Assembly (NCBI GenBank): GCA_050084515.1
Contig: CM114271.1
Coordinates: 40,176,001 to 40,240,000 of the forward strand
DNA: 64,000 bases
Source: Blasia pusilla
Lineage: Eukaryota
Direction of reading: 5' to 3'
A program made the translations under genes and the position numbers. A model generated the notes under the pieces. That model saw only the letters and a program-made list of their open reading frames with translations, was not told the DNA's origin and searched no databases. Shown here piece by piece: positions 13,601 through 64,000 of this stretch (position 1 is its first letter; every line of letters starts with the position of its first letter).

Positions 13601-13637
13601 ACTCATGTGTCCCCTCCCACCGAAACCGTTTGGCTCG

Positions 13638-17000: not shown

Positions 17001-20000
17001 CATCCAAAGATGTCTGTATCCGGAATGGACAATGCTCCATATCGGCTCTCGTCAAGCCCAATCCTCTGAATGTCGCTTTCCCCAATATGAGGGGTTGCGC
17101 TCCTAAATCCAACACAACACGCTGCAGACTAAAAGCTCTACCTCCGGGACTCACCAATTGGAAGACCTCTCCCCCGTTATCCAGCAACACAATACTAGGA
17201 GAAGCCATGGCACGCTCTATCGCACGACTAGTGGGCATCTCCGCCATCCTAGCAGCCGCAGCTTGACATGAATCTGACGTGGACGGCCCGAGCATCCGCT
17301 CTAAGGGTAGGTCCATCACCTCCTCTGCAATCACCTTTGAATGTGATGCATGAACTCCAACTCCACGCTCACGTAGCATAGCGACCAGCCGAAATACCTC
17401 GGCAGGCGTACCTCCCAATGTCATAACATCGGAAAATATCGGAGCACGGTACACCATCGTGGTTGCCCCCAACATCGTACTCGATACATACTTCTCCTAA
17501 GCATCAGCAATATGAGTCGTCACACTCATTTCTCCCATTGCCTCATTATGCCTGCACACCAATAACATAACCAACTCTTTGGGAACTCTGATCAGGATCC
17601 ATCGATGGGGTCCTCATCGCCTCGGACAACGTGAAAGATTGAGGAAGACCGGTCTATTTCCTGGCTTTCCCTCGCTATGGATCCAACTCTACGGCTGCTC
17701 CACATATCATAATTGCGGCAGCCTCTATCTGGGCAACCTTGCACATCCAACCAGGATCCTCCATATCTCTAGCTCCTCCATATGATGTCGATGCCACGGA
17801 TCCAGCATCGGGTAAACTCAATGCCATAGCGGCAATCTGCTCCTGTAGCTGCTGTATCTTAGCATCCATCCCAGCCTCATGCCCGGCATCTCCCTCGACG
17901 CGTCTAGGTGGTGGGACTCTACCTCCTCCACATGCAACTTCACCACCCTGTCAGGTAATTCCAACTCCTCGTTTCCCAACGAGACAACATGGTGCACGAC
18001 CTCTAGGCCCACTCGGACCGGCTACTCACTCTGATGCCCTCTCTGGCCCTCGGTCCGGACGTAACTCAGTGTGTAAACTAAAACACCTGATGCATGTGTG
18101 ACCATACCTCTGATAATAGTCACACTAATAACCTCTTAGTGTAGCACTATCTCCTCCTTCATGCTGAGGCACACGTCCATGACCCTCACGAGTGCAATCA
18201 CGTTGATCATGGGCTCCACTACATGACCAACAAGTAATCGTAGGCGGCTGTTGTTGAGCCGCATATGAAGAAGCAGGTCTCTATGTAATGGTCTCCCGGT
18301 ATCCTCCCTAAGCTCGTGGTGCCACAATCAACCTATCTAGGAGTCCACGTTGCTGCAGTGGTGATGCAGGCAATCGTGACTGCTCTCGCCCAGAACCCAT
18401 GGTGGCTACGCTCTCCTCCACCATGTTGTGCTCAATATTCTTGGCGGTCCTAAAAACATCTCTAAACGTAGGTGAGGTGTTCATAAGAAGTATCCCCTCC
18501 CCCACCCGTGTCCGCAGGGTCCGATCAAGCATCGCATATCATGATTGGATAGCATGAGCCTCTGTCAACCCCTGAGTGACGTTGATCAATCGACGCAAGA
18601 AAGTGTAAGCCTCATGCAATCTCTCACTCGGGCGCCTCTAGAAGTCATGGATGCTCCACAATTTCTCCGTCCATACCCTCTGGTAGCTCGCCCTCAACTC
18701 AGCGAAGAACTCAACCACGAGGTTGCACCTAGGACGAACTCGACTGGACGGTGCAACTACTCCAGTGTGAGTTACCCCTCCTAAAATATCACGTGCGGAA
18801 GAGGAAGTAGCCTCTCCTGACTCTTCCTCCTCATCTGGGAACGGCTCCGTCCATGACACATAGTGTGGGTCATACTAGAGTGGCCATGCCTCAATCTCTT
18901 GGGCATATCTGTGGGAGAACTCATGGTAATCGTCCATGGGCGCCCCCTCTAAATGCTGGAACATACCGTTCCATGTTGTAAACTAGTTGAACTCTCTAGA
19001 GTTCCTAGCCTGTTGTGAGTCGCGCCAACTCCTAAACTCGATGATGAAGTCGTGCAACTCTATCGTACCTACTGCACCTGAGAACCTACGCGGTCTTCTA
19101 CCATGGTCGTCCATCTCGTACGCCCAAGCAATAGGACTACTCAATATGAGTGGCAAAGCACTAAATTCCTCTACGCCCTCCTCCTCATTTGAAGATGACA
19201 TAGAAGGATGTCGAGGTGGTCCCGCATGTGGATACCCTCGAAACCTCGCGCCACTCCACGTAAATCCTCTAGAGCTACGCTCTAGGATTCCGTGATGACC
19301 CTTGTTCCCCTCTCACACAATCACTCTCAACCTTGCGTGTAATCACGCAATCACTCAATCTAACATACGGCACTCAAGCTACACTCTCTCATCAAGACGT
19401 GTGTTGTGCGGTAACAAGCAGCGTGATGCTGCAAATCAACTGATATATAGTCTCATCGATAAACCATCCTCAACTCTGGACATCCCACACAAGTCTTTGT
19501 TCCCTCAACCCATTTGTCATCTATGCTCTCAGCGTCAGCACGAAACCCAATATCCCAAATAACTTCCCAATACCCGGAATTCCCTCACACTTGCACGGTA
19601 AGAGACCAGAATGGGTAACCTGACAATAATGTCAATGTCGCTCCTTGGCAACTGTAAATCTCGACCCCAACTCGGTCGTGCAGATAACTCCTCCAATAAG
19701 CAAGTTGTAATCTTGTACTGACGTTGCTCAAACCTCCTAAATATTTAGTGCAAATCCAATGGTACGGTGCGACATTGGCGACACGGAACGGCACTCGATA
19801 ATGGGATGCAGCACTCCACGGCATACCCTCCTCAATCAGCAATACACATGCTCTGCTCCTTAGTGAAGGAGCGGCTCCGCGATCGAGACAATACGGTGCG
19901 TCCACAAGCAGCACGACGCGGCAATCGGCGGCGCATTGTAGCTACGCACGTCACGACACGGTACTCGATCGTCCTTGAGTGGCTACCAATCACAACATAG

Positions 20001-20880
20001 CAGAATGAAATGAAAACTCAAACACCGTGACCCAAGGTCGCCTGCCATCATTGGTTGATCACGAAATTGCGATGATGGTGGCATCCAAAACAAAGTATGT
20101 GGTGGTGGCGCAAGTTAGAGAATCAACGGTCATCGTGGAAGACCCTCCACTCCGTAATGGTGGCAATGGCAACCAAGGGTGGACAACGGCCGAACGTAGC
20201 TCTCAGTAGCGCTAGGCGGCGGCGGCCGACGGTGGCCCGTGGACCATTGACGATGACGACGGACCGTTGATGGTGACGGTTGACCGTTGACGATGACTAT
20301 GACCGCAACAGCTGCCGCCGCTGCCACTGATTTAGGGTTTGAACAATTTTACCATACAAATCGCCTTGCAATAAAAATTTTGCAAGATTGACCATAAAAT
20401 TTTGCTCGCAACTATAAATTATGCACTATTTGTTGCACAATGTGCACAGGTTTATGATCTACGACGATGTCAAAAAATATTTTGAATCGTACATTCGAGT
20501 AAAAACTGACGGGGACTGTCGTAAAGCCCAATGTCTCTTTCTCCTACACAAAATTTGGCAGCGCTTCCGCGCTGTGCACTGATTTCTCCCAAAAAAATTG
20601 TAAAACGTGTGAAAATACAAATCAACAAGCTACATGGTGCTCCCGAGAGCACCATGTAGGGGAAATTGGCTCCCATACTCAATCCCTATCAAAAATTGGA
20701 CAGCGCTTCCGCACGCCACTCTTTCACACGAAAAATCGGCAAAGGAAACATAAGCTCTCCAGCTCTGGTGAGCACTCCCATGAACCATTGAATGGGGAAT
20801 ACGATCCCCAACCTGCAAAACCAGTGAGTGACCAGCGAGCTCCCCCATGAAACTCTCTCACTCATCTCATTCTCTCTTTG

Positions 20881-21366
20881 TAAATCAAGATCCAAACTCT
20901 CTCAACACCATAGCTCTCAATGTGTGCACTCTCACATGTCTCTCTGAATATCAAACCAAACCCACTCTCCTAATGAGAGGCTTGGATTACACACAAGGCA
21001 AGCAAGACCATGGCTCCGCCGCCTCATGCCAAGAGGTTCAACAAAAAGAGAATGAGCTCTCAAGCTCTCTCTCCTTAAGGTATACCCCTCACCTCTTCCA
21101 AGCTCTCTCCATGGTAACCTATGCTCCCAAGTCACCTCTTTGGCTCTTGACCTGATATAAGAGGTCAAGGGCCATTTACCAAAAATAGAAAGTCGACCAT
21201 ATATTCAAAATAATACTTCCCTAAAATAGTAAGTTTCTCAATATGACTCCAAATGAGCCGAAACGAAGGGGTCTCAACAAGCTATCCCCGACCTCCTTAG
21301 TCTGTCCTCCACTACTCGCAAAGGCACTCAACTAGATCTCACCGATCTATCCTAAAAGACGTGACA
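20881..21366 (-). repeat. 5' terminal repeat A1 of element 1
   Basis: Matches 11504-11989 and ~60925-61442; ends GACGTGACA on the + strand; has no B segment. Confidence 0.9.
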
Positions 21367-24300
21367 AGGTATAGGATGGAAATATGGGCCATACTTTGAG
21401 CCACGCTAGCTAGTCACCAAAATAACTGCAAGTCCGAGTAGACATAAAGAGCCAGTTGCGAGGGCTTTGCTGGTGATCGGGTGCGGAAGAAGCCATTATG
21501 GCTCCAAGGAGACATGGCAAGTGGTGAGCATGGTCACACAGGGCGGCGCACTTGCTAGCAAATGGAACTACTAAGCCAGAGATGGAGAGAGCTGAAAGGA
21601 GTTCATGACAAAGGGCGCGCATGAGGAGGTCCTTGGGGGAGGGTGCAAAGCAAGGAAGGAGCCAGGTAGGGGTTTCTCATAGGGAGGTGAGGCAGAAGTT
21701 TCATTTTACAACCCTCATAACTAAATGAGTGCCTAGCAAAATATCATAACTCTAGTTCGCTCACTCTAGGATGATTTGCGCATTGGTGAGGTCTCTTGGT
21801 AGAGACGCAAGAGACACAAGAGATGAGAAGCGAACAAGGTTGAGAATTTCATGTGTGTTTATGGTCTTGACTAGGAAACGTGAACCAAGGCTTGAGAGGA
21901 GTCGAGTCTAGGAAGAGTGGTTTCCAAAGTGGTGAGAACCGGATTTGGAACATGACCAATATGTGGGGTTTTGACTATATTTTGGACCATAACTTTTAGT
22001 CTTGAGATGCATTTGGGATAAATAATGTGGCATTGGAAGGCTAATGCAAATCGAATTTCAATGCTCTAAAGATCTCAGAAAACACACGAGCAAAGGATGA
22101 GAAACTTCCCAAAAACCACTTTACACAACTTCCCGTAAAGTTGTTTTTGGGAAGTTTTTCATCCTTTGGTACCCAACTTGTGTACCACAAGTTGGGTATG
22201 TTGTGGGCCAAAAATAGGGGTTCGAACGTCTTTTCCCAAAGGATAGGGGAGGGGGAAGAAGCCTAGAAGTACTAGTAAGGGGGAAGGTCTCAAAGACTGC
22301 TTGGGACTCAAACCCCACTTTGGAGCACCGCAAGGAGCCCAAGGGCACGGAATGGATCAAGAGCTTGGCGTTGGGACTCGAAACCCAAACCAAGTCCAAT
22401 AGAGTAGATTTTAGAGGTCCCCATTGGATTCCAACTCACGATTCATTTAGTTTGGTCTCAATTTGGGGCTCATGCAATGTTCATTAGATAGTTGGGATCG
22501 CTAGGCGTGCGAATGTCGTTTTAGGTGGTTGGACTAACCAAAAAGTGTGTCCCAAGTCTCAAAAGAGTTGCTCGTGTTGGGAAGTGAGGAACTAGGAAGA
22601 TTGAGCTCAATGAGGTGCCGAGTTGAGAATTCAGTGAGTTGGAAGGTTGATTGACTCAGACCTGACTAATGTAAGTGTGTTTGGGTGCAGATCAGAAGTG
22701 AGAGCATGTCCTACTGAACGTACGCTTCCGCAACACGAAAGATTGATGTTCAAAAGGAGTAGGTGCACAATATTTCAGTTTGGTCTAAGGAACGAGGACG
22801 GGGTTATAGGTATAAAGGAGCTATGGAGAGACGTATACACGGGCTTGTAAGGGCTACACGTAGGGACGGGGGGAGCCACTAAAGCTCCAAGGAACTATGG
22901 AGTTACAAAGGTATCTATAGCTACATCTGGAGGAGAATGAACTGCGCAGGGCTAGGAATAGCCATGAGTTGAGTAGACGTCGGACGGGGGGACACCGACA
23001 TCATAGGGTGGCCAACCCACAAGCAGGTTTAGTTGGGGCTAAGTGCGGAGACAGTAGTCGGGCTGTGGGGACCCCTCTTGCATAGGGCACTTTGCATGTA
23101 CCAGTATGGACGCAAGGAGCCAAGCTACAGGGGCGGATTTGGGTAAGGAAAATCGAGGTCGAGCGGTGACTACGGTAGGGAGGCGGATGGGGTAGAGGCA
23201 ATGCATGGTTTGCCGCACTACCAGGTTAGAATGATGGACATGGTAAGCACGCTAACCGTGGTATGCGGCTATGAGGTTAAGCGGTTAAGCGGTTAAGATA
23301 GTTAGGCATTGGACGTGGTAGGTTGGATCGGAGGTAGTTGGTGATTGGAGAGCTACATGGTTGGTGGGAGTTGCAACTTTTTGGACAAGTAGGAGGTATT
23401 TTGTGACTTGGTATTATGGAGCGAGATTGTGATTACATTAGTGGCGAGATTTGCTAGCCATTTTGAGTCGTTGACAGAGACCCAATTTACTAGCACCATG
23501 CGGACTGGGAGCAGGATGGGTGATCCGCACCAAGGGTATGCTATGGAGTGCTAGAGGTGGAGACACATGCACCGCCACTAACAGGTAATCTACATCTGTT
23601 GACGGGAGGTTGGACGTGCTACTCGAGGAGATTTTCGTGCCATGGAGGTTGTTGCACCACATGGATCAATCAATGTTGACCATGGAGTAGAATGATGGCA
23701 GGGATGCCCATGTTACCCATCAAAGTCCTTTTTCCCGCACTTTTCTTTTGTCATTGAGGGTGTTGGGTATCATGTAGTAGCTTAGTCTAGATGGGTGTAG
23801 CAATGGTGACGAGTGTAGACTCCTTGCATGTGTCGCATATTTGTGGACATAGGGCGGTTTCTCGAGTAGGGGTAGTGTATATGACCCGAAAGAGTGCAAG
23901 TAGCTTAGGTGAGCTTGGTCAAGAGGCTCAGGGTGAGTCCGAGTCTTAAGTGTGCATGAGGTCGGATGTGCCATCACGGGATTATCATTAGCATAGGTGA
24001 GCTAGTGAGGAGTGTGGAAGACTCTCGTTGAGTTTGAGTGCTTGAGCGTGTGAGATAGGGTTGTCTTCATGGTGTTCTTCGAAGGTTTGGAAGAACGGGG
24101 TAGTTTGAGTAGTGGTAGTGGAGTAACACAAAGTGGAGTGAGTATCAAGGAATTTAGAGTGAGGAACCCTCCTCCCCGGCGGACTCCTGTCAATGGTTGG
24201 ATTGTCATCACTATACAACAAGTTTGGTGACAAGATTGTAGACGGAGATAGTGTTACGTGGGGGGAGATGGACAACATGAACCATTTGGGCATGTGTCAT

Positions 24301-28702: not shown

Positions 28703-31700
28703 CTAGTAAGTGCCCGTGTGATGCACGCGGGAAGTAAGGTAGTATAGAGTGAAGATACATTTTATCAAATTTATTTCATCTCAATATTTCTTTATATACT
28801 ACATTTCATGTGTAGTCACCTTCCTTATTTGAATGTTCATCCCTTCCAATGGTAATGTGGATGGAACTTCTCTTTCCTACTCTAGATAATGCTACATACA
28901 ATTAACCATGAGAAAATACATACGTAGGCAAGTAAATGCCAACCTTTTGCAAAGTTTGACTTTTCGACTTATTAATAGTCATTAAAAAAGCCGGTCTAAC
29001 AGGGAATTGAAACCTCCACAAATCAAATGGCAAACCAGAATCTGATACAATCAATGGAGTAGGTGGAAAAAAAATGCGATCTCCAATATTCTTCCCAGTG
29101 ATAATTTCAGCATCGATGCAATGTCTCATAGATCTACGAATCATCAATCTGGTCTCGTTTGCTTGTCCATGTGACCCATTCATGTTTCGTAAGAGTATGA
29201 TTGGTGCACCAATCTTCAAACACAAATGATGCGGAGGAAGTCTAGAAGGCAAGCATGTGTTTAAGAACTCAGTTTGGTAGATATGACTCATTCAGTATTT
29301 GGAATAGAGTCGACGATTACATAAATATGCTCCTGTACACAATATGTAATGAGTTAGTGAGAAAAGGAAATATTAGTATCCAAACTTCCAAAAAATATAT
29401 TGATAGAAGTACAAATGAGATAAGTCTAAAGGATTACCTCTCCGAGGAACCAAGACATAACGTCTGCATTTATGTCGTCAACATCTTTATTTCTTAGAGT
29501 CAAAATAGTTTTATCTCTTAAGAAATCAATGTCATGGAATCGGCTAAGAAAATTGCCATAGATCAAATCAATAAGATCACATATTTTGTTACTATTAGTA
29601 ACAATTTCAGATGGCAATCGTATAAAGTCTTATCCTAAATGAGGGTGTTAAAGTACACGACCCTCTCCCACTTCCAATAACCAATAAGCAAAAGCTTGTT
29701 GTTCATCATGCAAATGACCATCCAACCTTTGAACTCTCATGTTTATTTTCAACTTCATGACCCTTACATTAGACCAAAGAGATGATTTCTTTATGGTGGC
29801 TTGGATGATTTGCGGCCAATCCCCATGACGAACAACATGCAACACTTGACGAAAATCACCACCAAATACCATAAGTTTTCCACCATACGGTAATTATCGT
29901 AAATAATCCGAAACAACTCTCATGATATCCTGTAAGGTTTGATTCACGGCCTCAAAGGCATGACGATGAACCATAGGTGCCTTGTCCCATATAATGAGCA
30001 TCACCTCAAGGATTAAGTGCGCTCCATCACTATCGACCAATAAACTACCAACAAAAAGGGAAGAAAATTAAAAGCTAATTTTTTTTGAGTAATTAAAAAA
30101 ACTTTTGGAATATTAACAAAATTGAAGCTAATTAAGAAACTTATGGTACTAACTTGCAATTAGAGCTTTCATGAAGATTAATGGGGATCTTGAAGCGCGA
30201 ATGAGCAATACGTCCTCCGTCTGACAATAGGGCAACTATACTAGATGATGCTACAGCCAAAGTTATATCTCTAACTCTCCTTACACTTGCAAGAAGAAGA
30301 TTATATATATAAAAAAAAATTCCAGTTCCATCTGGACCATCGATGAGAAAAACTTTTGGAGATGGTGGAGCATTCGCACATATTTGATCAAGCTCATCAT
30401 GTATAACGTCCCATATCATGCGTTGTCCGTTGTTTAGACACGCTTCTCCCAATTGCACTTGCTCAAATAATTCTTCCATGTCATATGATAGCTCTTGTTC
30501 CTCCAAATATGAGTGTGAATGAAGGATTTCAAAATTAGCTTGGAGCATGTCTGGGAAGTCAGATAGTCTCTTTCCTTGATCTTGTAAATAATAATGGGCT
30601 CTCAATAATGCTGTACTAATGATAGCATCACCAACAGCAAGATTAGGAATTCTTATTTTCTGTAATGGAAGAGTTCCAAAAAAGGTCAAAATTATGGTTA
30701 GTATGTTGGACTCTTAATATAAGGGAGATGGAAAACGTTACTACTATTAAGAATAACGTTTTTTTGTAAGAGTTATAGCATTGGATTCTTTCTTGACGTC
30801 GTTCATATAAGAGATCTTCAACCAACGGAACCAAGAATTGACTCCATGATATTGCAGGTTGAGCAGGTGTGTTTTAAGCTAGAATAATTGCAAAGAGACG
30901 GCGTAGTGAAAAACCCGTACAGATTATGGAAGCTTCTTCAATGCAAGTAAACACCTCCCTATCATCCTCAAGAAGTCCTAATTGGATCGCAGCCTCCTTG
31001 AATGTTGGACATAATATCCCATGAACCGTTCTCAAGAATTCGTATGTAGTTGCTCCTCGAATATTATAGAGGAGTAATCTCAGCCAATGTCGTTCTCCTT
31101 CACCTATGACAAAGTGAGAAAAATGAGCTCATCTATCTATATATAAAAGAAAATGGGTGAGGCTGGTATATTAAAAAAAATGTATATAAAGAATTTTTAA
31201 GTTTTTACCTGGATGAGTAAGGTATAAGCGGCCAATGGGATGGCCACAATTATTGAATTTTTTCACCCTATGAATCCATCTCTTGTTACTCCAACGATAA
31301 TATGAAGGAAAATCTATATATAGATATTGTCGAGCAGTGGAGTCAAATAGATTGGGTGCAGACCATTGGGTAAGAGTTGTCTCTCTCTTTATTTGCAAAA
31401 TATTTTGAGGAGCGTCAACATCATTGAAGTAGAATATTTGTTGCTCCGGAAGATGAACTGCTAATCTCACGATACTTCGAAGTTCAACATGTAGAGAAAA
31501 TTTGAAGAGACACCACCATGCTTATGAACAAGATATATATCTGGAAAAATAAAAATTCCAAGTATTCAAATTAGGAGAATGAACATGATGGATAAGAAAT
31601 AGAATGGAATGCATCACATCAATGAAGTAGCGGAATCATACCTCAAATCAAGATATGATGTTGTCTCATCAATAACGTCAATTGCATTGGATGTATCTGT

Positions 31701-34700
31701 ATCCTTTGACAACTTAAATGACACCGCATCAGACGCCTTATACACCTATTTGTATAAGTACTTGACCGCAAAAACACTACTTGTGATTTCAAGATTAATG
31801 TGACAATTGAAGAGGGTGCATAACATAGGATTGTAGAGCACAACCCAACGATTATCCAATGAATGTTGGCTCTTAATTATTGCCCTCCCATTCTCCGATC
31901 TACAAAAACATAATAAAAAATCATGAATATGCTTTCCAATACTTCAATGACATCATATGTCTTACAATAATAAAGATAAGCCAAAATTAGAGGATCCTTA
32001 CCTACGATATATCGTATAGCCATCTTCCGTCTCTATAATGTTGGCCGCAAAAGCCTTAGGATAGCCTTTGGTGCACTTTTTGGTTTCCTTATCCATACAT
32101 AGTGCATTTGGATTTAATGGTCCACATGGCCCATGAACCATGCAATTAGTAACAGTAGAATACAACCTTGGATGGGTAGATTGATCAGGGATTTCTGGTG
32201 AAATAATATGATCATAATCATGAGTGGTACGTGGTTTATCCTCCCGTCCTAATATACTAAGAATGTGCACATGCGGCAAACCTCTTTTTTGGAATTCCAC
32301 CACATGGATGCATCCTGCAACTCGTCCCAATATGTGCTTCTTGATGATAAGCCTTAATAACTCTTTCCTTTTCTTCTAAAAAACCCGTACGACCAAATCT
32401 GATCGATCCGCAACTGATTGACCAGGTAATAAGGCTGATGTAATCTCCTCCCACTTTGGATTGCATGTCATAGTCAAAAAGTAGTCCGGCTTCCCCAAAT
32501 GTCTTACAAATGCCATTGCATCTTGATACAATTGATGCATGTGACGCGACCCTCCCGTGAAAGAAGAAGGTAATATAATGCGCCTCCCAACCCTCCGACT
32601 ATACACATCATGTCGATGCATGGCATCCTTTACACCTTGATATAATCTAGCCCTTAACTCCTTTTGATTCAAGCGAACCCATGATGATCGTTGCATCTTT
32701 ATAGTTGCATAGAGGTCAACCATATATTTTTGAGTAAGTCGACCAAACGGCAATAAGCGATTGTCATCTTCGCCTCCAATCTGCGTTTGAAGTCGAAAAC
32801 ATGCAAATTGCAAGGCCGTAACACTCTTTGTTTTTCTTTCCTAAAAAATGTCACCATCAACTCTTTCCTCATCCATCCAATCTTCTAAAGGTTCCACGTG
32901 TCCCTCCTCATGAATAATCCAACCCAATCGTTGGGATTCTCGATGACCTTCAATCCTCTCGAAGGGTATTCCAAGATGCCAACATGCTTCACCATAGATA
33001 AATAGTAGAACAAAATATAGTGAAATATATGCTTCATTAAGGTTTGATATACGCTTCACTCCTCCTCCATGCAATCTTATAATTATATCCCAGTGGTCAA
33101 CATGTTCACTGCCATCACCCGACAATATAGCCGCAACCTCAGAAGCAATTGGTAAATTATAACGCTTAGCCTCGAGACCTCTCTTACTTGCCTCGAGGAT
33201 GATCCGCATATTGAGATCAGTTGTTTCATATGCCATATGACAAAAGATCTTCATATATGGGTTGCATTCATATAACATGTCTTGTAGCCCTATCAAAATA
33301 TCTATATTAAGATTAGACGATCTAGACATAACTCTTTCACGATTCTCCAATTCATTTGCGCTATCATGGATGTAGAGTTGAGCAAATTGGGGATGAACCC
33401 CCATATCAAGATGTAAGGATCCAATAGAATGTTAAATCCCACCTTGGACCCTAAAGTGTTCAGTGCCACCTATTTGTTCATTTACGTGCATTCCAATAGA
33501 TGCAAGTTGAAGCGCATAATTGTAAGCTTTAGTATGTGTAAGAAAATGAAGACTTCTAGGACCAATACCTGAAATCAAGGATTTCAGGAATGGAGGAGAC
33601 AATTTCAAGAGGGGTAAATGTATTCTCCCATGGCCATAACACATGCCATATGGTGAGTAACTAATCTTTAAGCCTTCACCCTTTCACATTTCCAATGTAA
33701 AGCATGACATGATGGACATATCTCTGTCATATAATCCAATGTATGACGACCGCTAACACAATTCAAACTCCTATGTGATCTCAACTACTTAATATCATTT
33801 TCTTGGAAATTTGGTTTGCTTGCAAGATTCAATAATGTATTTAATCTTACAACCCTATCAACAACATACAACAGAGGAATCCTGTAAGCATTTGGTTTAA
33901 TGACACTTTCTCGAGATAACACAACTCCATTAATGGTAGAAGACAAAGGATCTACTCTTGACCTTGCTTCATCCTCGTAATGGGGAAGAGTCAAAGAATT
34001 CTCAACAACTTCATGTTGAAACAGAATCGGAAGAGTGATATGTAACTCAACTTTTGGTATCACATAAGTAATTGGCCTTGTCGTAGATATATTCTCGATA
34101 ACTTCATGGAGTGCACTATCACATAACTCTCGTCATGGTGATGCATGTATCCGATCTGTAGATGGAAGATGAACTTCTTGATTTTCTCCTACCATTCCTC
34201 CATCCTCATTAAAAGGCTTGAGAAAACATCAATATATTACATAATACATACAAATAAAAAATGAACAATCAAAGATTTTCAGCGAGGATATAAAAAGTTA
34301 GATATGTACCTTATGGATTGACTACCAATAGCCATAAGCTCCTCATTTGGAGTAGTTGGAATACTTTGAACTACGATCGTAGTCTCAACTTGACCATGAA
34401 GCGCTTTCCTTCTTTTTCTATACTCTTGATAATAACACCTCTTTTTTTCTTTCAAGGCTTCCATTTTGTCAACACGAATAGCACGTTTTCGTTTTTGGGC
34501 CTCGCCGCGTAGAACCTTTCGAAAATCACGTACATCCATAGGATTCAATGGAATGGGAAGTCTAAAATAATACAGACATGTTAAGAGCAATGCACTGACT
34601 TAAATTAAAAGGGAAGATTGTGAAGGTTGGAAATGTGGACATGCTAAATGATTGTCAATTTTGTGAATTTACGTTGGATATGTTTTGGGAAGGAATTCAT

Positions 34701-51490: not shown

Positions 51491-54400
51491 ATGGCGGGTG
51501 CGGTGAAGAGTATTGGGCTCCCATGGGTTCACTCAGGTGTAGTATGTACGGGATGCCAAGTCAATCCTATCACCGGCTATCGTTACAAGTGCGAAACGTA
51601 TGTATTCTCAATCTTCATCCAATTGAATCCAACAATCAATGTCCATCCAATCCTTGAAACTCAGATGACAGCAAGTTCTCGTGCCGATGCCTTTCCATTC
51701 TGTTCTCAAGTTCCCAGCCAGTTGTCTGTTTCATGCCAGAGTGGGTTGACACCTTACAGCCGCATCTTTTCTTGGTTCTATTCGATGCAGCTGCGTGGAA
51801 CATGACTTGTGCGAGAAATGCTTTCGCTTGGGTCATGCACAGATGGGACATAAGTTCCTGCGGATAGCGAGGGATAGTAATAATTTTCACCCTCCCTTTC
51901 AAGTGTACTATATCGTGTGCGATGAGTGTGGACAAGGACCAATCGAAGGAAGACGATACCTTCATAAGTGGTGAGTGTTTCCTGATCTTGATCACTCCCT
52001 ATTAGGCCAGGCTTTGAATTAAAGACGTATTGAGATGAAGCCTGTGCTACTTCCTCACCCTACGATTATAGAATTCAGGACGGCGTTTGTCGTGATCGCC
52101 AATGTTTAGACTACAGGCGTCTATCTGTGTCCAGGAACTCATCTCGGATCTGACAAGAAATCTCGACTGTGCATAGGCGTCCCAACTACAATCTCTGCAA
52201 CGGCTGCTTCACTAGACTGCAAAGGCCAGGCTTTGACGCCAGTAGGGAGTTTGAGGCTATTGATGAAGTCAAGATACAAACAATTTTCCCTACGCATATT
52301 CCGGTTTATCACTTTCACAAGCAGTGTGGGTCTTGTGGCATCACTCCAATATGTGGACCTCGTTTTGATTCACTCGTGTACGTAAGCTATGACACTCATT
52401 CACCTGCCATGCTCCGTGTCGACCGTGCGATGTGTTGGACTCATGATGGTGGGAAAGCGAAACGCTATCTCATGTTCTGATGCGTGGTGGAGTGCAGATA
52501 TATGGACTACTCGCTTTGTTTGGTATGTTTTGATACAAAATTTGTCAAGAGAGCCATAAAAAATGATGACTACATCAGAATCGAGCGTCCAGAGCCGGTC
52601 AGAGTTCGTCAAATTGCTGTCTATTCGTGTATGAGCTGTGGAGATGCACCAATTTGTGGGCCTGCTTATGTTCACCAACGGTCAGTGGACCCAAAAATCC
52701 GCCCAAGTATTCTCTTTATTTCTTTATTTTGTTGGCTGATTGTCTAAAAGCGTGATTCTCTTCCGTGACTTCGCTAAGCATAGGTCAAAGATCTTAGCCA
52801 TGAGCTGAGCAGAAACACATTTTGAAATTCTGCCTTCCACGTTTCCTCTGTTATGGACAGGTTACCCGAAAAGATATACTGTATTCTTTGCTACATGAAC
52901 GTCCCGCGTCAGTTTGAGTACAGCAGAGTTGAGGCACCTTCTCAATTTGGTGAACCGCCTGCTCCTGCTTTTGCACGACAAACTCCACTTGTAACGGGAG
53001 GATCAGTACGACATGAAGATTATGAGAACCTCGCTCAGAAATTTGAGTTGTACAGGAAGGAGAAGGAAGAGAAGGAGGAAGCAGCAAGAGTGGTAGCAAA
53101 GAAGTATATGGAGCTCACTGAAAAATTTGAGCAGTATCAGCAGAGAGCGCAAGGGAGTGGGAGTTTTAGACAGCAAGAGCTTGTTGCTAAAGAGCACGAG
53201 AAATATATGAGTGAAATCGAGGCACTGAAGAAGCAAAAGGATGATGATGCTGAGTATGCTACTAGAATCTATGTTAGTCGCATTGAAGCTTTGGAGGCAA
53301 TTGTGGCAGAGAAGGAAGCAGCCGTGAGAAAAACTGAAGCAACTTATGCAGCACTTAACGAGGAATTGGAGAAGCTGAATTCCCAAGAGAAAGGGAAAAC
53401 GACTGAGTCTAACAGCCTCGCTAGAGTAAAATCTGTTGATGGAGAGAGGGCAGAAACAAAAGCATCAGACTCGAGCCTCTCCCTAGAATTTGAGAAGTTG
53501 AAAATGCAGCTCTTGTCTGTAACTCAAGAGCTTGAGAAGTCCAAAGAGAGGGAAGAGGAAATGAGAACGATTGCAGTCAAGCATAATGAGCTTGTTGAGG
53601 AACACTTGAATCTCACTGAGGAATTTGACACAATAAAAAAGGAGAAGGAAGTAGCGGAAAGAAATTGTGAGCAGAAGTCCACAGATTATACAGCTCTGAA
53701 GGAAGAAGTAGCGAGGCTGAAGTTGGAAAAAGAAGAAGCTGTGGAATATGCCAGTCTTGCAAAAGAATTGGACTCACTAGATGTAGGGAAGGAGGAAACA
53801 GTGACTGCAGAGAAGTACACCAGCCTCTCTTCAGAATTTGAGAAGCTTAAAAAGGAGCACACAATTCTTACTCAGGAATTTGAGAATTTCAAAGAGGAGG
53901 TGGAAGAGATATCAAGGAGGAATGGTAAGAAATACGATGACCTCATGAGAGAGCACTTGAGCCTGACCAGTGACTTCAATACGTTGAAGGAAGAGAAGGA
54001 AGAGGTGGTACAAGTGCATGCGCAACAACATATGAGCCATCAGAAGGAGATCTTATGCCATAAAGAGGAGAAGGAAGAGGTCGTGCAACAATTAGAAGAA
54101 AAATACACAATCCTGGAGGAGGAGTTGTCTCGGCACAAGGAAGAGAAGGAAGAGGCAATACGGGTCCATGCAGAGAAAAATGCAAGCCTTGAGGAGGAAC
54201 TCTTAATCTGTAAAAAAGAGAAGGAAGAAGATGCTAAAATGCTTGCAAAATTTCAGGAAGAAAATGAGAAACGGAAAGATGAAGCAGTAGAGTGGGCTGA
54301 CCTCATTGAACAGTTCCAGGGTGTGATCAAAGACAAGGAAGCAGTCGCAGCAGAGCTTGACATGAGAGTAAAAGAGTTGGAACAGCTGGTGGTGGAGAAG

Positions 54401-55837
54401 GAGGCAGATGTTGAAAGGAAGGCAAATGATTACGTAGTTATTTATGATGAATTTGATGCCTTACATAAGGAGTATGACAAATTGCGAAGAGAGATGGAGC
54501 TTTCTATGCGGACAAATGAAGAGAGGTATGAGAATCTGAAGTTGGACTTCGAGAAGTATAGGGAAGATAAGGAAGCGGCGGAGAAAGAGTGGGCACAAGA
54601 ATGTGATAACGAGAGAAGAAAAGCTGCAGAGTTTGCCAGTAATGTTAAGGATTTGCAAGTGAAGGAGGAAGAAGGGAACTGGTATGTTGCCAAGGTTGCG
54701 GAGTTGGAAGGATTGTTGAAGGAGAAGGAAATAGGCATGAAGACTCAGTTGGAAGATCATGAACATCTTGTACAAGAATTGGAAGGACTGAAGAAGGATT
54801 TGGAAAAGTCTGAAGAAACTGCAAGAGTTAGCAGACGTGAGTTTTTGGACCTTTCTGAGGACTTTGGCAATTATAAAGAGGAGATCGAGGGAGAGATGAA
54901 AGCTAGAGCTGAGGAACATGCAAAACTTCTCCAAGAAAATGAGGAAGTGAAGAATGAAAATGCTCAGCTTATTGACGACATAAATAGTTTGGAAGAGTCA
55001 CTGAAGGAGACAGAAGCGGCAATAGAAAGTAGTGCAGCAGCTTACGCATTGGCTGTAAAGGAGGTTGAGGTTTTGAAGGAAGGGTTGGAAATTTGGGAGG
55101 AAGAGAAGAGAATGGCAGCAGCAGACCATTCTGTTGCTATTCAAGAACTAGAAACAGAAGTGAAAAGGTTGGAGAAGTTGGTACTTGAGAAGGAAGAGGT
55201 AGCAAGAGCGATTTCAGAAAAATTCTCAATTCTCTCAGTGGAGTTTGAGAGGTACAAGAAGGAGAAAATAGCAGAGGTGGAAGAGTCTAGCTTGAGTAGG
55301 CAACTGTATGCAAACCTAGCTCAGAACCTTGACAAGTCTAAGAAAGATAAAATTGCAGGGGGCAAAGTGAACATGGAGGACTTCAAAAGGCTTCAGATAG
55401 AAAATGAGGAACTGAAGGAAGAAATTCAGAGTGTGAAGGAAGATTTTGATGAGCTCTTCCCAAAATATCGAAATCTTTGTCAATCAAAGGTTACCAAGGA
55501 TGACTATGAGCGTGTTAAGACAGAACTAGAGAAGCTGAAAGCCAGCGTGCTCGACATTCCTGGTGTTGGTAAATGTGCCACCGCCGCGATTTGCACATAT
55601 GGAGTCATTGTGGAAAAGAAGAAAGTGGCTCTGGAAGAAGGCTTACAAAAGTCTCGTCTTCAGACAAAAGACCAAGACATCCTGCGGCAATCTGTAGAGT
55701 TTATGAATGATGCAGTCAAAGACCTTGACAGAGAGTTTTCCAACTTCATGGAGGAAGTTATTCCTGTCACTGATGAAGAGGCCGAAGAATTTTTCTTGAC
55801 CATGAACATTGAGACCGCTGGAGAAGCATCAAAATAA
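51491..55837 (+). CDS. Protein with four ZZ-type zinc-finger(-like) units and a long acidic coiled coil (~1215 aa, 5 exons)
   Basis: Exons 51491-51597, 51791-51970, 52177-52377, 52498-52680 and 52861-55837 splice in frame. First unit is HSGVVCTGCQVNPITGYRYKCETCVEHDLCEKC..H..H (canonical ZZ). The last exon is an open, E/K-rich heptad region of ~990 codons. Confidence 0.88.
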
Positions 55838-59240: not shown

Positions 59241-60097
59241 GAACTCATTTTTATATTATGAAGTAATGAATGAATATCCTATTTCACTATTCAAAAGACT
59301 CAATATGATGCACATATTAGAATCCATAAAAAGTGGGAAAGGAAACATTCTCACCATAAAAGGATAGGGAAAAAAGTGAATGACATAATTTTCCTTGTCC
59401 TTACATTTTATGCACTTTTTGACAACAAGATGGCAGGTAAGAGGGCTTAGAAGTTTAACCAAAAGGGAAAACACAATCCTCTTTTACCATAAAAATGAAA
59501 GGCCACTAAAAAGTGAAAATAGTAGAACTCATTTTTATATTATGAAGTAATGAATGAATATCCTATTTCACTATTCGAAAGACTCAATATTATGCACATA
59601 TTAGAATCCATAAAAAGTGGGAAAGGAAACATTCTCACCATAAAAGGATAGGGAAAAAAGTGAATGACATAATTTTCCTTGTCCTTACATTTTATGCACT
59701 TTTTGACAACAAGATGGTAGGTAAGAGGGCTTAGAAGTTTAGTCAAAAGGAAAAACACAATCCTTTTTTACCATAAAAATGAAAAGGCCACTAAAAAGTG
59801 AAAATAGTAGAACTCATTTTTATATTATGAAGTAATGAATGAATATCCTATTTCACTATTCGAAAGACTCAATATTATGCACATATTAGAATCCATAAAA
59901 AGTGGGAAAGGAAACATTCTCACCATAAAAGGATAGGGGAAAAAGTGAATGACATAATTTTCCTTGTCCTTACATTTTATGCACTTTTTGACAACAAGAT
60001 GGTAGGTAAGAGGGCTTAGAAGTTTAGTCAAAAGGAAAAACACAATCCTTTTTTACCATAAAAATGAAAAGGCCACTAAAAAGTGAAAATAGTAGAA
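59241..60097. repeat. Tandem repeat, 3 x 284-285 bp
   Basis: Units start at 59241, 59525 and 59810; units 2 and 3 are almost identical. Confidence 0.97.
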
Positions 60098-60796
60098 AAC
60101 TAGACAAAGAAGTTAGAAGGCGGGAAGACCAATGATAGAATCCCATACTTGAAACACTAATAGTTGATATTGACTGAAATCTTGATTACCATAAAGGATT
60201 TCTTATAATAGCATTTCTCTCAACAAAGCATGAGTAGAGCTAGCAACCTCATGGCCTTAGGATTTTCCAATATAATAAAAGCACATTGCCTAGAATATAA
60301 TAGACTTACATATCAAAACTTGTCAAAATGAACACTACAGGAATCTACAAGGTATAGGTATGGTCAAGACTAAAGCCTCTAAGTTAACTTGACAACAAGT
60401 ACAAATATGGTTTTACTTTCTTCACATGGAGAGGCTATTAACCCTCCATGTGGCTTGGCCAACGGTCATGGAGTTACATCCTTGTCTACACTATCAACCT
60501 TTAATTTCCCTTTGGAGGTCCCATGTATATCCTATATATCTAGAGGTTATCTATTCTCCCTTTGGTATTTTGGTTTTGCCTTCACTTAGGAGATCACATC
60601 ATTGCCCACTATCATATGCATACACATCGTTACACAATACATAAAATTGTTAGATACACAAACATATATACTAACACCGCATATAATACATCAACCATCA
60701 CATCCAAATGTATACCATCACATGCAGAGGCTTGACAACAAAAATCAGATTGTAAACATACTATATGAATAACATTAATCGAGCCAAACTCATCCT

Positions 60797-63700
60797 TGTT
60801 GTGCGCATATACATCGCTACACAACATACATCGTTGTCACCAAACACACACACAAACACACACGATCTCATGCTTACTCATGGCATCCAAACAACGAGAC
60901 AAGAAGTACCAAAATATCTCCAATTAAAACAAGGTGAAATCTCTCTCACAACACCATATCATCTCACATGTGTGCACTCTCACATGTCTCTCTCAATATC
61001 AAACCAAACCCACTCTCCTAATGAGAGGCTTGGATTACATTCACAAGGCAAGGGACCATAGATCCGCCGCCTCTTGCCAAGAGGTTCAACAAAGAAAGAA
61101 TGAGCTCTCAAGCTCTCTCTCCTTGAGGTATATCCCTCCCCTCTCCCAAGCTCTCTCCATGGTAACCTATGCTCCCAAGTCATCTCCTTGGCTCTTGACC
61201 TGATGTAGGAGATCAAGGGCCACTTCCCAAAATATAATTTTGACCATATACTCAAAACAATACATACCTAAAATAGTAAGTTCCTCAATATGGCTCCAAA
61301 TGAGCCGAAACGAAGGGGAAACCTGCTCTCTCTCTGGTTTCTCGGGGCCTGAGCAGGTCATCCTCGACCTCTTGAGCATATCCTCTACTACTCGCGAAGG
61401 CGCTCTACTAGATCTCACTGATCTATCCTAAAAGATGTGACAATTGTCGTGTGCATACACATCGCTACACAACATATATCGTTGTCACCAAACACACGCA
61501 CGATCCCATGCTAACTCATGGCATCCAAACAATGAGACAAGTACCAAAATATCTCCAATCGCCCCCCTAGTTGGTGGTTAGGTCCCTCTAACTCCAGATA
61601 GCCATCTATTCCTACCAACCATGACATACATCTCTTGGACGCTACGAGCAAAAAGGCCGAGTGCTCATGTGGCCCCATTGTTAGTCACCTCCTTGTCATC
61701 CATGTCACAGACACAAGTCGGAAGCTAAAACTACCTAGTCTATGTACATCTAGGATACATCCATTGTCCGTGAGGAACCCTAGTGAGAGGTGGCGTCAAA
61801 CATGCCATATGCCATCCTCTCGAACATCCATCATAGACTAGCATAGTGGCTGCACCACGGGTGGAACCACACAACATACATCGCAAGCATGCAGGAACAA
61901 CTGCTAAGCTCGGATCAACTATATCGTCAATGTTTGGAAGATGACATGGGGCACAATTACGCACATGGTCCTTCCAAACCATACCATCGCGTCCCTTCAA
62001 TAAGAGAACACCGGATGGCAAAATCTCACGCACTCTCAAGATGGTGCGCCCTGCATTCATATCCAATGTCGTGGATGCCGTCTGCTGCAAGTAGACATAA
62101 TCTCCTTGATGAAACCTCTGGATAGTAGGTCGATAACCACCTCCCGGTATAGTTGCATATCTCAATGTATCTCGATGCTGCGCAATCGCCAAGTTCTCAA
62201 ATGCCATGGGCATCACTCTTCGAAACAATTCAGCCCTCTGAGAACATGCTCGCATCCATACATCAAGGTCATCAAGGTTCAACATCTCACCAACATCTCG
62301 ACGAATGGCCACAGGTAAATCTGGCTCTCGGCCATACAAAAGCAAGTACGGTGAGAAAGACGCTAAGGATTCCTGCTTGTTGAATCTGTATCCCATTGCT
62401 AACCACGGAAATTGGAAGTCCCAATCTCCTAGATGACTTCTCTGCAAGCCATATTTGCGTAATTCTCTCTTCACCGTCTGCACAACCCCCTCCGCTAGTC
62501 CATCCGCCTCAAGATGATCTCGCGAAGTAGTACGGTGGTCGATGAGTGTCTGATCACCCAAGGCTTGAAACTCCTCGCGGAACTATGTATCTTGTTCTGT
62601 CAACACCTCAGCTGGTGCGCCGTAATGACTCAACACCCGATCTAAGAAGGCATACGCTACTTCCTCACTCGCTTTATCACGCAATGCAACCAACTCTATC
62701 CACTTGGAGAAGTGCTCAACCATCACCAACACATAACGACTATGGCGCTCTGTCAAAGGTAAAGGTCTTGCAAAATCCAAACTCTATCAATAACCTAAAC
62801 GCGTGATCAGAAGTGGATGAAATTGTGGAGTTGGAGCATTGAACGATGCCAAGACTCGATCACACACCACGCATCTTGCAACAAAGTGCTACATGTCAAT
62901 CTGCATGCCTCGCCACCAATACTGAATTTGGAGCAAGCTATACATCCGCTTCACTCCATAATGACCCAACTCCTCATTGGCATGACGCACCAAATGTGCT
63001 CTCTATAAAGGATGAGGCACTACACGCACTCTACCATCCTTCCATACTCAAAACATATGTGTCCCCTCCCACCAGAACCATCTGGCTCGCTGTAGGATCC
63101 AATCTTGCTCTCTAGCTCCCACTATGCTCGCAACGCTGCTAGTACGCAAGTACTCCAAGACTACTCCATCATCGTGAATATCTCGGCCATCTGTCGTCTC
63201 CTCATCGGCCTCTGGATCTAAGGACTCTCCATCAAATCTTGCCATCAAAGTCTCAACAACCTGGCTCTCCATAGCCAAAAAGCCCAAATAGGCTGACACG
63301 TGCCATCTTGGCACCAACTCCTCATCACTCTCTCCATGCCAACGAGCTCCAGTCGCATCTTGCTAACTCGGGCATAGGTTACGGCTCAAACCAACTGCAT
63401 CATGGTTGAGCATCCGAGGTCTATGCACCACTTGGAAGTCATACTCGTGCAACAAAAGAGCCCACCTCACGAGCTTCCTTGTAAGCTTGTCGGACTCCAT
63501 CAACCACTTAAATGGAAAATGATCAATAATGATGGTAAAGGGATTTTGGAATAGATAACATCCGAAATGTGCAACAACCCACACTGCAGCCAAGCACTCA
63601 TCCTCAAACGAGCTATACTTTGCCTCTGCAGCGTTTTTTGAGCAACTAGCGTAAGCCACCATGAACTCTCTACCATCATCGTCATGCTGAGTGAGCACGA

Positions 63701-64000
63701 CTCCAAGCCCCAAAATGCTCCAATCGGTATGCAACTGGAAAGGACGCCCCCTGATCGGTCTCCTCAATATGGGCACGGGCGTCAATCTATCCTTGAGCAT
63801 CTGAAATGCTCTCTCATGCTTATCCTCCCAGTGCCACTCATGATCCACCTTGGTCAGCAAGGTCAGTGGTTTCACAATCGAGCTGAAACCCTTGACGTAC
63901 CGTCGATAGAAGTTGGCCAATCCCATGAATATACGAACTCGACTCACATTTGTAGGGCGTAGAATGCGTGAAATAGCCTCTACCTTCGTCTGCTACATCC
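60797..64000 (-). mobile_element. Second copy of the Gypsy family (3' part: RT end-RH-IN-PHD plus B1-A2-B2 repeats); continues beyond the window
   Basis: ORFs 63363-63947 (FMGLANFYRRYV, LHTDWS, RNase H), 62583-62780 and 61740-62561 (integrase + PHD). Repeats B2 60797-~60924, A2 ~60925-61442, B1 61445-61559. Confidence 0.93.

Follow-up and report, generated by a model that had tools for sequence, protein, structure and literature searches.

A PHD finger at the integrase C-terminus of a Gypsy-like, often DNMT-bearing retrotransposon family of green plants and algae

Does the Cys- and His-rich end of a decayed integrase in the Blasia pusilla genome represent a genuine chromatin-reader domain, and what would such a domain do in a retrotransposon that also encodes a DNA methyltransferase? 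The question is raised by a 64,000-bp stretch of DNA (hereafter the window), for which a sequence-only reading had proposed a PHD finger at the integrase C-terminus. Pfam searches, domain mapping, an AF2 model and Foldseek comparisons all bear this out: the integrase ends in a genuine PHD zinc finger, a domain of the histone-reader class.

Two decayed copies of one element

The window contains two decayed copies of a green-lineage Ty3/Gypsy-like retrotransposon, approximately 82–85% identical and both on the minus strand. Both are pseudogenes, each with two zinc ligands of the finger lost and with stop codons, and these two insertions, both old, are the sample that the window offers. Copy B covers a whole element (about 11373–21367, 9,995 bp), and the DNA methyltransferase (DNMT), reverse transcriptase (RT), RNase H, integrase (INT) and PHD finger were all found within it. 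The pol order is (gag-protease)-DNMT-RT-RNase H-INT, and the integrase closes with an SH3-like domain followed directly by the finger. The decayed gag and protease region (16624–19309) was located by tblastn with gag-protease ORFs from the related loci L017 and L037, and no Pfam family was detected there at E 0.01. The DNMT3-like cytosine-5 methyltransferase lies upstream of RT in three frames (15264–16363); it was detected by tblastn with the DNMT parts of P0018, P0081 and P0286 and by PF00145 on the ORF 15725–16363 (24.9 bits, cut-off 22). RNase H (13641–14276; PF17917, 103.6 bits) and RT (14326–14772; PF00078, 82.2 bits) together occupy 13641–14772, and the decayed integrase (12430–13520), with its H2C2, core and SH3-like parts, is broken by a frameshift and was traced from ORF pieces and from tblastn segments of P0018 and P0005 in two frames.

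Copy A is truncated by the window end at 64000, and its single reading frame from 61740 to 63992 contains seven internal stops and no frameshift. It encodes RNase H (63441–63830; PF17917 and PF17919), the integrase H2C2 zinc-binding domain (62853–63002; PF17921, 43.4 bits, residues 331–380), the integrase catalytic core rve (62523–62777; PF00665, 32.6 bits, residues 406–490 of the read-through P0122) and the SH3-like C-terminal domain (61947–62099). The latter is formed by five strands in the AF2 model of P0001 (E5–9, E22–30, E35–39, E45–49 and E53–55), and Foldseek pairs it with Tudor-PHD cassettes.

The order protease-RT-RNase H-INT with a DDE integrase is that of Ty3/Gypsy elements, but the two identical flanking long terminal repeats expected of them were not found; they are instead split direct repeats in an A-internal-B-A-B layout, which is complete in copy B and represented by its 3' part in copy A. 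In copy B, the 5' repeat A1 (20881–21367; self-BLAST, 79% identity to 11504–11987 and 83% to 60925–61443) is paired with a 3' block at 11373–12109 (B1 11989–12109, A2 11504–11987, B2 11373–11503). The corresponding block of copy A, delimited by self-BLAST and sequence ends, is located at 60796–61559 (B1 61444–61559, A2 60925–61443, B2 60796–60924) and follows a G-rich tract. When a B unit was sought by local alignment beside A1 of copy B, only chance-level matches appeared, no tRNA-type primer-binding site was evident by eye after A1, and the flanks of copy B share a 5-bp match with one mismatch as a target-site duplication only when the element ends are shifted by a base. The substitutions between the copies comprise 342 transitions and 221 transversions, with transition differences at 30% of CG, 42% of CHG and 17% of CHH cytosine sites, a pattern that fits decay through deamination of methylated cytosines.

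The finger and its place in the integrase

The finger forms the last 45 integrase residues and continues the integrase reading frame in both copies. In copy A (61746–61880), it sits at the end of a minus-strand ORF of 280 aa (61740–62582, finger residues 235–279), one residue (Thr) before the TAG stop that closes the pol frame at 61740–61742. Ligands 1, 2, 4, 5 (His), 6 and 8 of the C4HC3 set are present, and positions 3 and 7 are Tyr. The copy B finger (12295–12429) retains ligands 3 to 8, with Tyr at position 1, Gly at position 2 and one in-frame stop between ligands 6 and 7. The codons differ between the copies as TGT/TAT at positions 1, 3 and 7 and as TGT/GGT at position 2. Since each copy has lost two different zinc ligands, the losses are complementary, as the sequence-only reading had noticed. 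The Pfam search that it had suggested gave PF00628 matches above the curated gathering cut-off of 24 bits for both copy A (29.1 bits, E = 1e-6) and copy B (38.7 bits, E = 1e-9), and also in the long read-through translation (27.7 bits).

In the AF2 model (mean pLDDT 78), the copy A finger adopts the PHD fold with strands at E90–93 and E98–101. Foldseek superposes it on the PHD fingers of DPF2 and DPF3 at 1.3–1.4 Å over 48 columns with 40–42% identity, on BAZ2B at 1.9–2.0 Å and on ATXR5 at 2.1 Å.

The position of the finger is that of a chromodomain in other integrases. It lies after the SH3-like domain, about 215 residues beyond the rve core, and the chromodomain of a related element, P0126, lies 287 residues beyond its core. 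No match to the chromodomain family PF00385 was obtained by Pfam in the ORFs and read-throughs of the window copies, and the PHD finger occupies that place. P0126 is also the best non-PHD match of the intact relative P0018 (406 bits), which we treat only as a lead on the relation to chromoviruses.

A conserved module of a widespread family

The full eight-ligand set is present in neither window copy alone but in 113 of the 120 relatives listed, the number that match the strict C4HC3 spacing pattern. PF00628 is annotated (precomputed) in 116 of the 120. In metagenome contigs, all eight ligands are kept in 49 of the 75 genomic copies that span the whole finger, and 357 of 597 pattern-matching stretches encode a relative. 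Finger-bearing relatives occur in liverworts, streptophyte algae (Closterium) and chlorophytes, and sequence comparison identifies the finger as a conserved module of a large integrase clade, a trait of the whole family. Decayed copies are sometimes entered in annotations as host "PHD-type domain" genes, e.g., Marchantia Mp_7g09570 (P0003), and such annotation can inflate counts of chromatin-reader genes. A separate feature search yielded leads scoring at most 0.90, among them a hint of PHD-integrase clusters in molluscs (0.83).

One ORF of the intact relative P0018 encodes DNMT, RT, RNase H, INT and PHD together, and the best solved structures for its DNMT are DNMT3B, 3A and 3C (E 1e-6), ahead of HaeIII (4e-5). 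Together with the methyltransferase of copy B, this ORF supports the earlier proposal that one polyprotein pairs a putative reader with a methylation writer, but protease processing may place the two on different proteins. The full order DNMT-RT-RNase H-INT-PHD is present in 11 of the 16 type-I-like loci examined, and two further loci have DNMT followed by PHD but lack RT and RNase H. The A-internal-B-A-B repeats are also complete in loci L037, L054 and L045. In a sister clade with chlorophyte members, 28 of 33 informative proteins place DNMT after RNase H and before INT, so that DNMT, INT and PHD are contiguous; the other 5 of 33 have the finger and lack a DNMT at this position. The motifs of the methyltransferase are conserved, and its catalytic Cys is present in 35 of 37. 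Since two long DNMT-bearing relatives of the same domain order, P0286 and P0291, have no finger, the finger is dispensable for some lineages.

Both halves of this combination are already in print, as PHD fingers on retrotransposons and as DNMT3-carrying Gypsy elements. KnitGypsy-Dnmt3 of Klebsormidium nitens has a Gypsy pol with an unrearranged DNMT3-like domain in its polyprotein (de Mendoza et al. 2018, PMC5890265) and, according to the legend of Fig. 4c, DIRS-like repeats in an A-coding-B-A-B arrangement. The window element likewise has a DNMT3-like domain inside pol, Gypsy domains with DIRS-like repeats and a streptophyte host, and thus matches this published layout, the likeness resting on the description and a single integrase from K. 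nitens, P0104. This protein groups within the 33-row clade of the window element with a support of 96, in a tree whose outgroup consists of two non-PHD rows, both on long branches, and its gene model has no finger. Klebsormidium was absent from the P0018 homology results (14 proteins for the whole query and 4 for the DNMT region), which came from word-based searches that scored the 8000 candidates sharing most words. The main text of PMC5890265 mentions no PHD finger; it presents the gain of DNMT3 as particular to the lineage of K. nitens. The window family, in contrast, has relatives in liverworts, Closterium and chlorophytes.

On the PHD side, Gypsy-7a_cRei of Chlamydomonas is a Gypsy LTR element with a PHD finger in its polyprotein (Fig. 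6 legend, PMC9940879), and REM1 (Perez-Alegre 2005, as cited in PMC6673714 and PMC8557442) is another. As described there, both resemble the window family as green-lineage Gypsy LTR elements with an unusual LTR substructure, but the legend for Gypsy-7a_cRei gives no DNMT, the comparison being one of descriptions. No C. reinhardtii protein was among the named matches in our listing of relatives. The sequence-only reading had mentioned reports of PHD-tailed integrases in a few non-chromovirus plant Gypsy lineages; the Chlamydomonas element and the general statements on PHD fingers in retrotransposons in these three papers agree with this in part, and the word "PHD" does not occur in the main text of a classification of plant LTR elements (PMC6317226). 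In the literature searched, we found neither the joint carriage of PHD and DNMT nor the two DNMT positions nor the spread across green plants.

What the finger may read

The 60 PDB sequence matches listed include CHD4 PHD1/2, ATXR5, MLL3, DPF3, BAZ2A/B, PHF21A (BHC80), KDM5A/B, AIRE and UHRF1. We take ATXR5, DPF3, BAZ2, KDM5 and UHRF1 to be specific for H3 unmethylated at K4 (H3K4me0), and the positions scored below to be the canonical methyl-lysine cage sites. In the 113 ligand-complete fingers, Gly occupies the site two residues before the His in 110, an aromatic residue precedes ligand 1 in one, and Asp follows ligand 3 in 105. By homology, these fingers would therefore have no obvious aromatic cage, as had been proposed. 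BHC80, AIRE-PHD1 and CHD4 PHD1/2 are described as H3K4me0 readers without an aromatic cage (PMC3471955). These readers, together with ATXR5, DPF3 PHD2, BAZ2A/B and KDM5A/B PHD1, provide the best sequence and fold matches of the window finger and share with the family a small residue followed by an aromatic one before the His, an Asp following ligand 3 and the absence of a cage Trp. The window family differs from them in that its finger is carried on a transposon integrase and that acidic residues after ligand 2 are fewer in the window's clade. The mean number in the first eight residues after this ligand is 1.07 in the window's clade (0 in copy A) and 2.67 in the sister clade. Since the AIRE residues that contact unmethylated K4 are acidic (PMC3471955), H3K4me0 specificity is least certain for the window's clade.

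Because the nearest solved relatives include H3K4me0 readers and Gly occupies the cage position, reading of unmethylated H3 to steer integration is the best-supported candidate mechanism, and the earlier proposal of such a reader gains support by homology on these two points, with insertion targeting as its putative role. The finger of live family members would bind the H3 N-terminal tail unmethylated at K4, and this binding would hold the complex of integrase and cDNA on nucleosomes away from active promoters. By analogy, this would be the same job as chromodomains do for chromoviruses via H3K9 methylation. Chromoviruses such as MAGGY (Gao et al. 2008, as cited in PMC6673714) carry a histone reader appended to the integrase. 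As in the window family, the reader follows the SH3-like (GPY/F) domain with a proposed role in tethering integration to a chromatin state; their module is a chromodomain rather than a PHD zinc finger, and their ligand is methylated H3K9, whereas that of the window family is likely unmethylated H3K4. Fusion of the integrase-binding domain of LEDGF to a chromodomain or a PHD finger shifts where HIV-1 integrates (PMC8149907). For targeting through a PHD finger by a natural LTR element, no test was found in the literature searched. Taken as a whole, we moderately favor a Gypsy-like DNMT element whose integrase PHD finger probably binds K4-unmethylated H3 to steer integration.

Three other explanations were weighed against this one. 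That the finger does not belong to the element, the Cys/His pattern having arisen by chance or from a piece of an adjacent host PHD gene, could be suspected from the two ligands missing in each copy taken alone; the in-frame position in both copies, both Pfam scores and the conserved, in-frame finger in more than 100 relatives from several phyla leave it virtually no chance, and with PF00628 and the complete ligand set so frequent among the relatives listed, we regard it as refuted. The finger may also be functional but read something else, such as H3K4me3, H3K9me3, acyl-lysine, unmodified R2 or a non-histone host protein, and so steer integration to another chromatin state or take part in nuclear import or in assembly. 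PHD fingers as a class are versatile, the PDB matches also include tandem-module fingers (DPF3 and MOZ) and UHRF1, and the scarcity of acidic residues in the window's clade leans the same way. In addition, the top Foldseek matches of the SH3-like domain and finger together are the Tudor-PHD cassettes of PHF1, MTF2 and UHRF1, which leaves room for combinatorial reading, but these matches have rmsd values of 9–19 Å. The Gly at the cage Trp position, the near absence of an aromatic residue before ligand 1 and the lack of H3K4me3 readers such as ING or BPTF among the 60 listed matches make such a ligand unlikely.

The remaining alternative is that the finger serves the methyltransferase of the element rather than its integrase. 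In the manner of the ADD domain of animal DNMT3, it would guide or license methylation, on nucleosomes unmethylated at H3K4, of a new copy or the DNA around it. The conserved DNMT motifs and catalytic Cys, the tendency of DNMT and finger to travel together in the type-I-like loci and their contiguity with INT in the sister clade speak for it. In the window type, however, DNMT precedes RT and the finger comes last in INT, and normal processing would separate them; in addition, five sister-clade proteins have a finger and no DNMT between RNase H and INT, and P0286 and P0291 have a DNMT and no finger. Known targeting modules, moreover, sit after the integrase SH3-like domain, as the finger does. 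We consider this role distinctly improbable, and retain H3K4me0 reading by the integrase as the preferred explanation.

Targeting of integration by chromodomains is well studied. More tentatively, an old Gypsy-like lineage across green plants and algae may have co-inherited an H3K4me0 reader, the integrase PHD finger, with a DNMT3-like writer placed at two or more positions of pol, ahead of RT in the streptophyte-type clade and, in the clade that includes chlorophytes, after RNase H and before INT. The DNMT, INT and PHD of the second clade could form one mature protein, and reader and writer may cooperate, the element choosing H3K4-unmethylated chromatin and methylating its own new copy; we regard this scenario as possible but doubtful. 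If true, it would give a transposon counterpart of the ADD-methyltransferase logic of animal DNMT3, in which an H3K4me0 reader and a DNMT3-type catalytic domain also occur in one gene product, as they putatively do here. In the window family, by contrast, the reader is a simple PHD finger rather than an ADD domain, it is separated from DNMT by RT, RNase H and INT and is probably cleaved apart from it, and the coupling is speculative. Retrotransposons with chromatin readers choose their landing sites, and this choice shapes genome architecture. The family provides numerous natural copies that are intact, both in algal genomes and in metagenome contigs, with the putative reader beside a transposon-encoded DNMT3-like enzyme, and therefore makes it testable whether a mobile element both reads and writes the epigenetic state of its host.

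PHD finger at the integrase C-terminus of two decayed elements

In both decayed Ty3/Gypsy-like elements of the window, copy A and copy B, the integrase ends in a PHD finger. The copy A ORF at 61740..62582 (minus strand, 280 aa) encodes the C-terminal part of the integrase, and its final 45 residues (61746-61880) have C4HC3 spacing and are followed by a Thr and a TAG stop. The same reading holds at 12295-12429 of copy B, so that the positions named in the sequence-only reading are accurate for both copies. The Pfam search proposed there places both fingers above the PF00628 cut-off of 24 bits, with 29.1 bits for copy A (E 1e-6) and 38.7 bits for copy B (E 1e-9). The zinc ligand losses are complementary, as had been noticed: ligand positions 3 and 7 are Tyr in copy A, and positions 1 and 2 are Tyr and Gly in copy B, whose finger also contains an in-frame stop between ligands 6 and 7. 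The ligand codons of the two copies differ three times as TGT/TAT and once as TGT/GGT. The feature is real, and its reading as an integrase-borne PHD finger was right; we hold the domain and family identity, taken jointly, to be close to certain. A nearly invariant Cys-Ala-Pro-Cys-His motif (61941-61955, minus strand; residues 53-57 of P0001, the copy A C-terminal segment) closes the SH3-like domain; its second Cys is invariant over 30 alignment rows, and its conservation is sufficient for use as a search pattern.

Copy A extends beyond the window edge and runs from 63992 to 61740 in one reading frame with seven internal stops and no frameshifts, encoding RNase H, integrase H2C2, the rve core and the finger. 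Copy B is full length (about 11373-21367, 9,995 bp), and its frame is broken by frameshifts and stops. On its minus strand, the 5'-most part holds gag and protease remnants, detected only when ORFs from related loci served as tblastn queries, followed by a cytosine-5 methyltransferase (DNMT; PF00145, 24.9 bits, cut-off 22), RT and RNase H (Pfam domain matches), and, in the 3' part, the integrase (tblastn) and the finger (PF00628). Self-comparison of the window gave 85% identity between 11380-14274 and 60801-63726, and global alignment of the two copies gave 82%.

The repeats of this DDE-integrase, Gypsy-type element differ from ordinary LTRs: in element orientation, split direct repeats are arranged as A1, the internal region and B1-A2-B2 (11373-12109, 20881-21367 and 60796-61559). 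The A unit measures about 485-520 bp and the B unit about 115-130 bp, and a G-rich tract lies directly ahead of B1 in both copies. Self-comparison and inspection of the ends found no B unit beside A1 of copy B.

Both copies are dead. They differ by 342 transitions and 221 transversions, and the transitions (60796-63992 versus 11373-14600) affect 73 of 241 CG, 71 of 168 CHG and 198 of 1148 CHH sites, the frequency at CG and CHG cytosines being two to two-and-a-half times that at CHH. The CpG observed/expected ratio is 0.64-0.68. The substitution pattern is consistent with methylated cytosines having been deaminated while the copies were silenced, which would also account for the Cys-to-Tyr replacements and for the TAG and TGA stop codons, and the CG/CHG bias fits plant-type methylation.

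Other features lie near the two copies. Three tandem units of about 285 bp, 97-98% identical to one another (59241-60097), adjoin the 3' end of copy A. About 5 kb from this copy lies a single 1003-aa open frame (52826-55837, plus strand), probably a host gene, whose product has a very high content of Glu, Lys and Leu and repeated segments that resemble coiled coils. Two 403-bp direct repeats adjoining copy B (8870-9272 and 10572-10974; 98.3% identical, 1.7 kb apart) may bound a small, young element as its terminal repeats. Two minus-strand ORFs of 190 and 196 aa (30141-30713 and 32841-33431), which we take to resemble a PIF1-type helicase and the N-terminal region of a Helitron transposase, may represent a decayed Helitron.

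Family members and the two positions of the methyltransferase

The interest lies in the family more than in this locus. A homologue search with the 280-aa ORF, in which longer proteins were sought, returned 217 proteins at E <= 0.001 among 3076 candidates. For the 120 relatives listed of these 217, precomputed annotation records PF00628 in 116 and rve in nearly all, and 113 match the strict C4HC3 pattern. A Marchantia polymorpha relative is 75% identical to the ORF; the other named hosts are Calypogeia fissa, Klebsormidium nitens, Haematococcus lacustris, Pleodorina starrii, Tetrabaena socialis and, in one record, Chromochloris, and Closterium has DNMT-RT relatives. The M. polymorpha gene model Mp_7g09570 (P0003), named "PHD-type domain", joins a protease end, a DNMT fragment, an integrase C-terminus and the finger, and looks like an internally deleted transposon copy annotated as a host gene. 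Among clusters with PHD, rve and integrase H2C2, the commonest recorded phylum is Mollusca (Atlas score 0.83); as a lead only, PHD-tailed integrases may occur in animals too.

Metagenome contigs contain at least 597 finger-pattern stretches, at least 357 of which encode a relative. Among 80 loci retained, 18 had enough upstream sequence for domain order to be examined. The order of copy B, DNMT-RT-RNaseH-INT-PHD, recurs in 11 of the 18; two have DNMT and then the finger, without RT and RNase H, two gave no DNMT match, one is a lone fragment with only the SH3-like domain and the finger, and two (L064 and L075) encode RT-RNaseH-DNMT-INT-PHD in long open frames. The split repeats are complete in L037, L054 and L045 and partial in L018 and L030.

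In a FastTree tree of 120 rows, built from integrase H2C2 to the SH3-like domain with the finger excluded, 118 PHD-integrase rows (111 with a complete finger) fall on one side of a branch, opposite two long-branched outgroup rows. The window's clade (33 rows, support 96) includes the window, liverwort proteins, K. nitens P0104 and P0018, an intact DNMT-RT-RNaseH-INT-PHD relative; its sister clade has 83 rows (support 88). A DNMT between RNase H and INT occurs in none of 25 informative proteins of the former and in 28 of 33 of the latter. It lies upstream of RT in P0018 and P0214 of the window's clade, and between RNase H and INT in P0081, P0060 and P0099 of the sister clade. The finger ends the protein in the window's clade, with tails of 1-21 residues, and up to 388 residues extend beyond it in the sister clade.

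BLAST found the DNMT in 48 of 133 proteins, most of them missed by precomputed Pfam annotation, which flags it in only 6 of the 120 relatives listed of 217. The methyltransferase motifs are kept: 35 of 37 sequences have the catalytic Cys, and every motif is intact in the sister-clade Haematococcus DNMT. Over about 320 residues, the two DNMT types share 31-36% identity (E about 1e-40). The nearest solved structures to the P0018 DNMT are DNMT3B, 3A and 3C (E about 1e-6), followed by HaeIII (4e-5) and plant DRM (1e-4). With the 213-aa DNMT ORF of the window as query against 1.84 billion representatives, HMMER retrieved 410 proteins at E <= 0.001, of which 63 reached E <= 1e-10; most are short fragments, and both domain orders occur among the longer ones.

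The sequence-only reading paired a histone reader with a DNA methylation writer in one polyprotein. Several results speak against a strict link of this kind. The ENA-contig proteins P0286 and P0291 are full-length gag, PR, DNMT, RT, RNase H and INT polyproteins with no PHD finger in the integrase tail, which shows that the finger does not always accompany the DNMT. P0277, with its DNMT upstream of the protease, and five sister-clade proteins with the finger and no DNMT between RNase H and INT also stand against it.

Published relatives

The first member of the family is already published, and PHD is a known class of accessory domain. KnitGypsy-Dnmt3 carries a DNMT3-type domain within Gypsy pol, and its repeats are reported to be organised just as in a DIRS retrotransposon (PMC5890265). 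Compared by this description, the window family shares with it the DNMT3-like domain in Gypsy pol and the split-repeat layout. The main text of PMC5890265 contains neither "PHD" nor "H3K4". PHD is described as a common accessory domain of C. reinhardtii transposons (PMC8557442), and the legend for Gypsy-7a_cRei includes a PHD finger (PMC9940879). A survey of 172 genomes reports RT and integrase domains occurring together with PHD and with chromodomains (bioRxiv 10.1101/2021.11.30.470311). Gypsy-DNMT3 is known from Klebsormidium, and a 2026 preprint mentions only "streptophytes (Gypsy-DNMT3)" beside dinoflagellate cases (10.64898/2026.05.21.726589); the family's names were found only in this preprint and PMC5890265. 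The main text of a plant LTR classification paper (PMC6317226) contains no "PHD" and names neither Marchantia nor Klebsormidium. The literature searched yielded no account of the finger as a constant DNMT partner in the window family, of the RT-RNaseH-DNMT-INT-PHD order, or of this family in liverworts, Closterium or chlorophytes.

What the finger may read

The finger starts about 215 residues past the rve core and the chromodomain of the relative P0126 starts 287 residues past it, and these offsets support, as to position, the claim that the finger stands in place of a chromodomain. In chromoviruses, a reader module steers the integrase (Gao et al. 2008, as cited in PMC6673714), and LEDGF fusions bearing a PHD finger or a chromodomain are likewise described as steering integrase (PMC8149907).

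In an AF2 model covering the C-terminal 123 residues of copy A (30-row alignment, mean pLDDT 78), the finger comes after an SH3-like barrel of five strands. The modelled finger superposes on DPF2 and DPF3 at 1.3-1.4 Å with 40-42% identity, and also on BAZ2B, ATXR5 and UHRF1; together, the two domains match the Tudor-PHD cassettes of PHF1, MTF2 and UHRF1 at high rmsd only. The solved sequences nearest to the finger of protein P0004 are CHD4 PHD1/2 (4e-14) and ATXR5 (6e-13), with further matches to MLL3, DPF3, BAZ2A/B, PHF21A, KDM5A/B, AIRE and UHRF1. We take ATXR5, MLL3, DPF3, BAZ2A/B, KDM5A/B and UHRF1 to belong to the same group of unmethylated-H3K4 readers as CHD4. BHC80, AIRE-PHD1 and CHD4 PHD1/2 are such readers; other residues stand in for their aromatic cage, acidic ones in the case of AIRE (PMC3471955).

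Across 113 family fingers, a Gly lies two residues ahead of the His in 110, an Asp directly follows ligand 3 in 105, and a Met stands three residues ahead of ligand 3 in 97. The residue just ahead of the His is the aromatic core residue (W in 73, Y in 26 and F in 8). We take the residue two ahead of the His to be one of the canonical aromatic-cage positions. Acidic residues after ligand 2 average 1.07 in the window's clade versus 2.67 in the sister clade, and their small number in the former suggests caution about reading of unmethylated H3K4. In our reading, held at about even odds, the finger would anchor the integration complex on H3 tails that lack methylation at K4.
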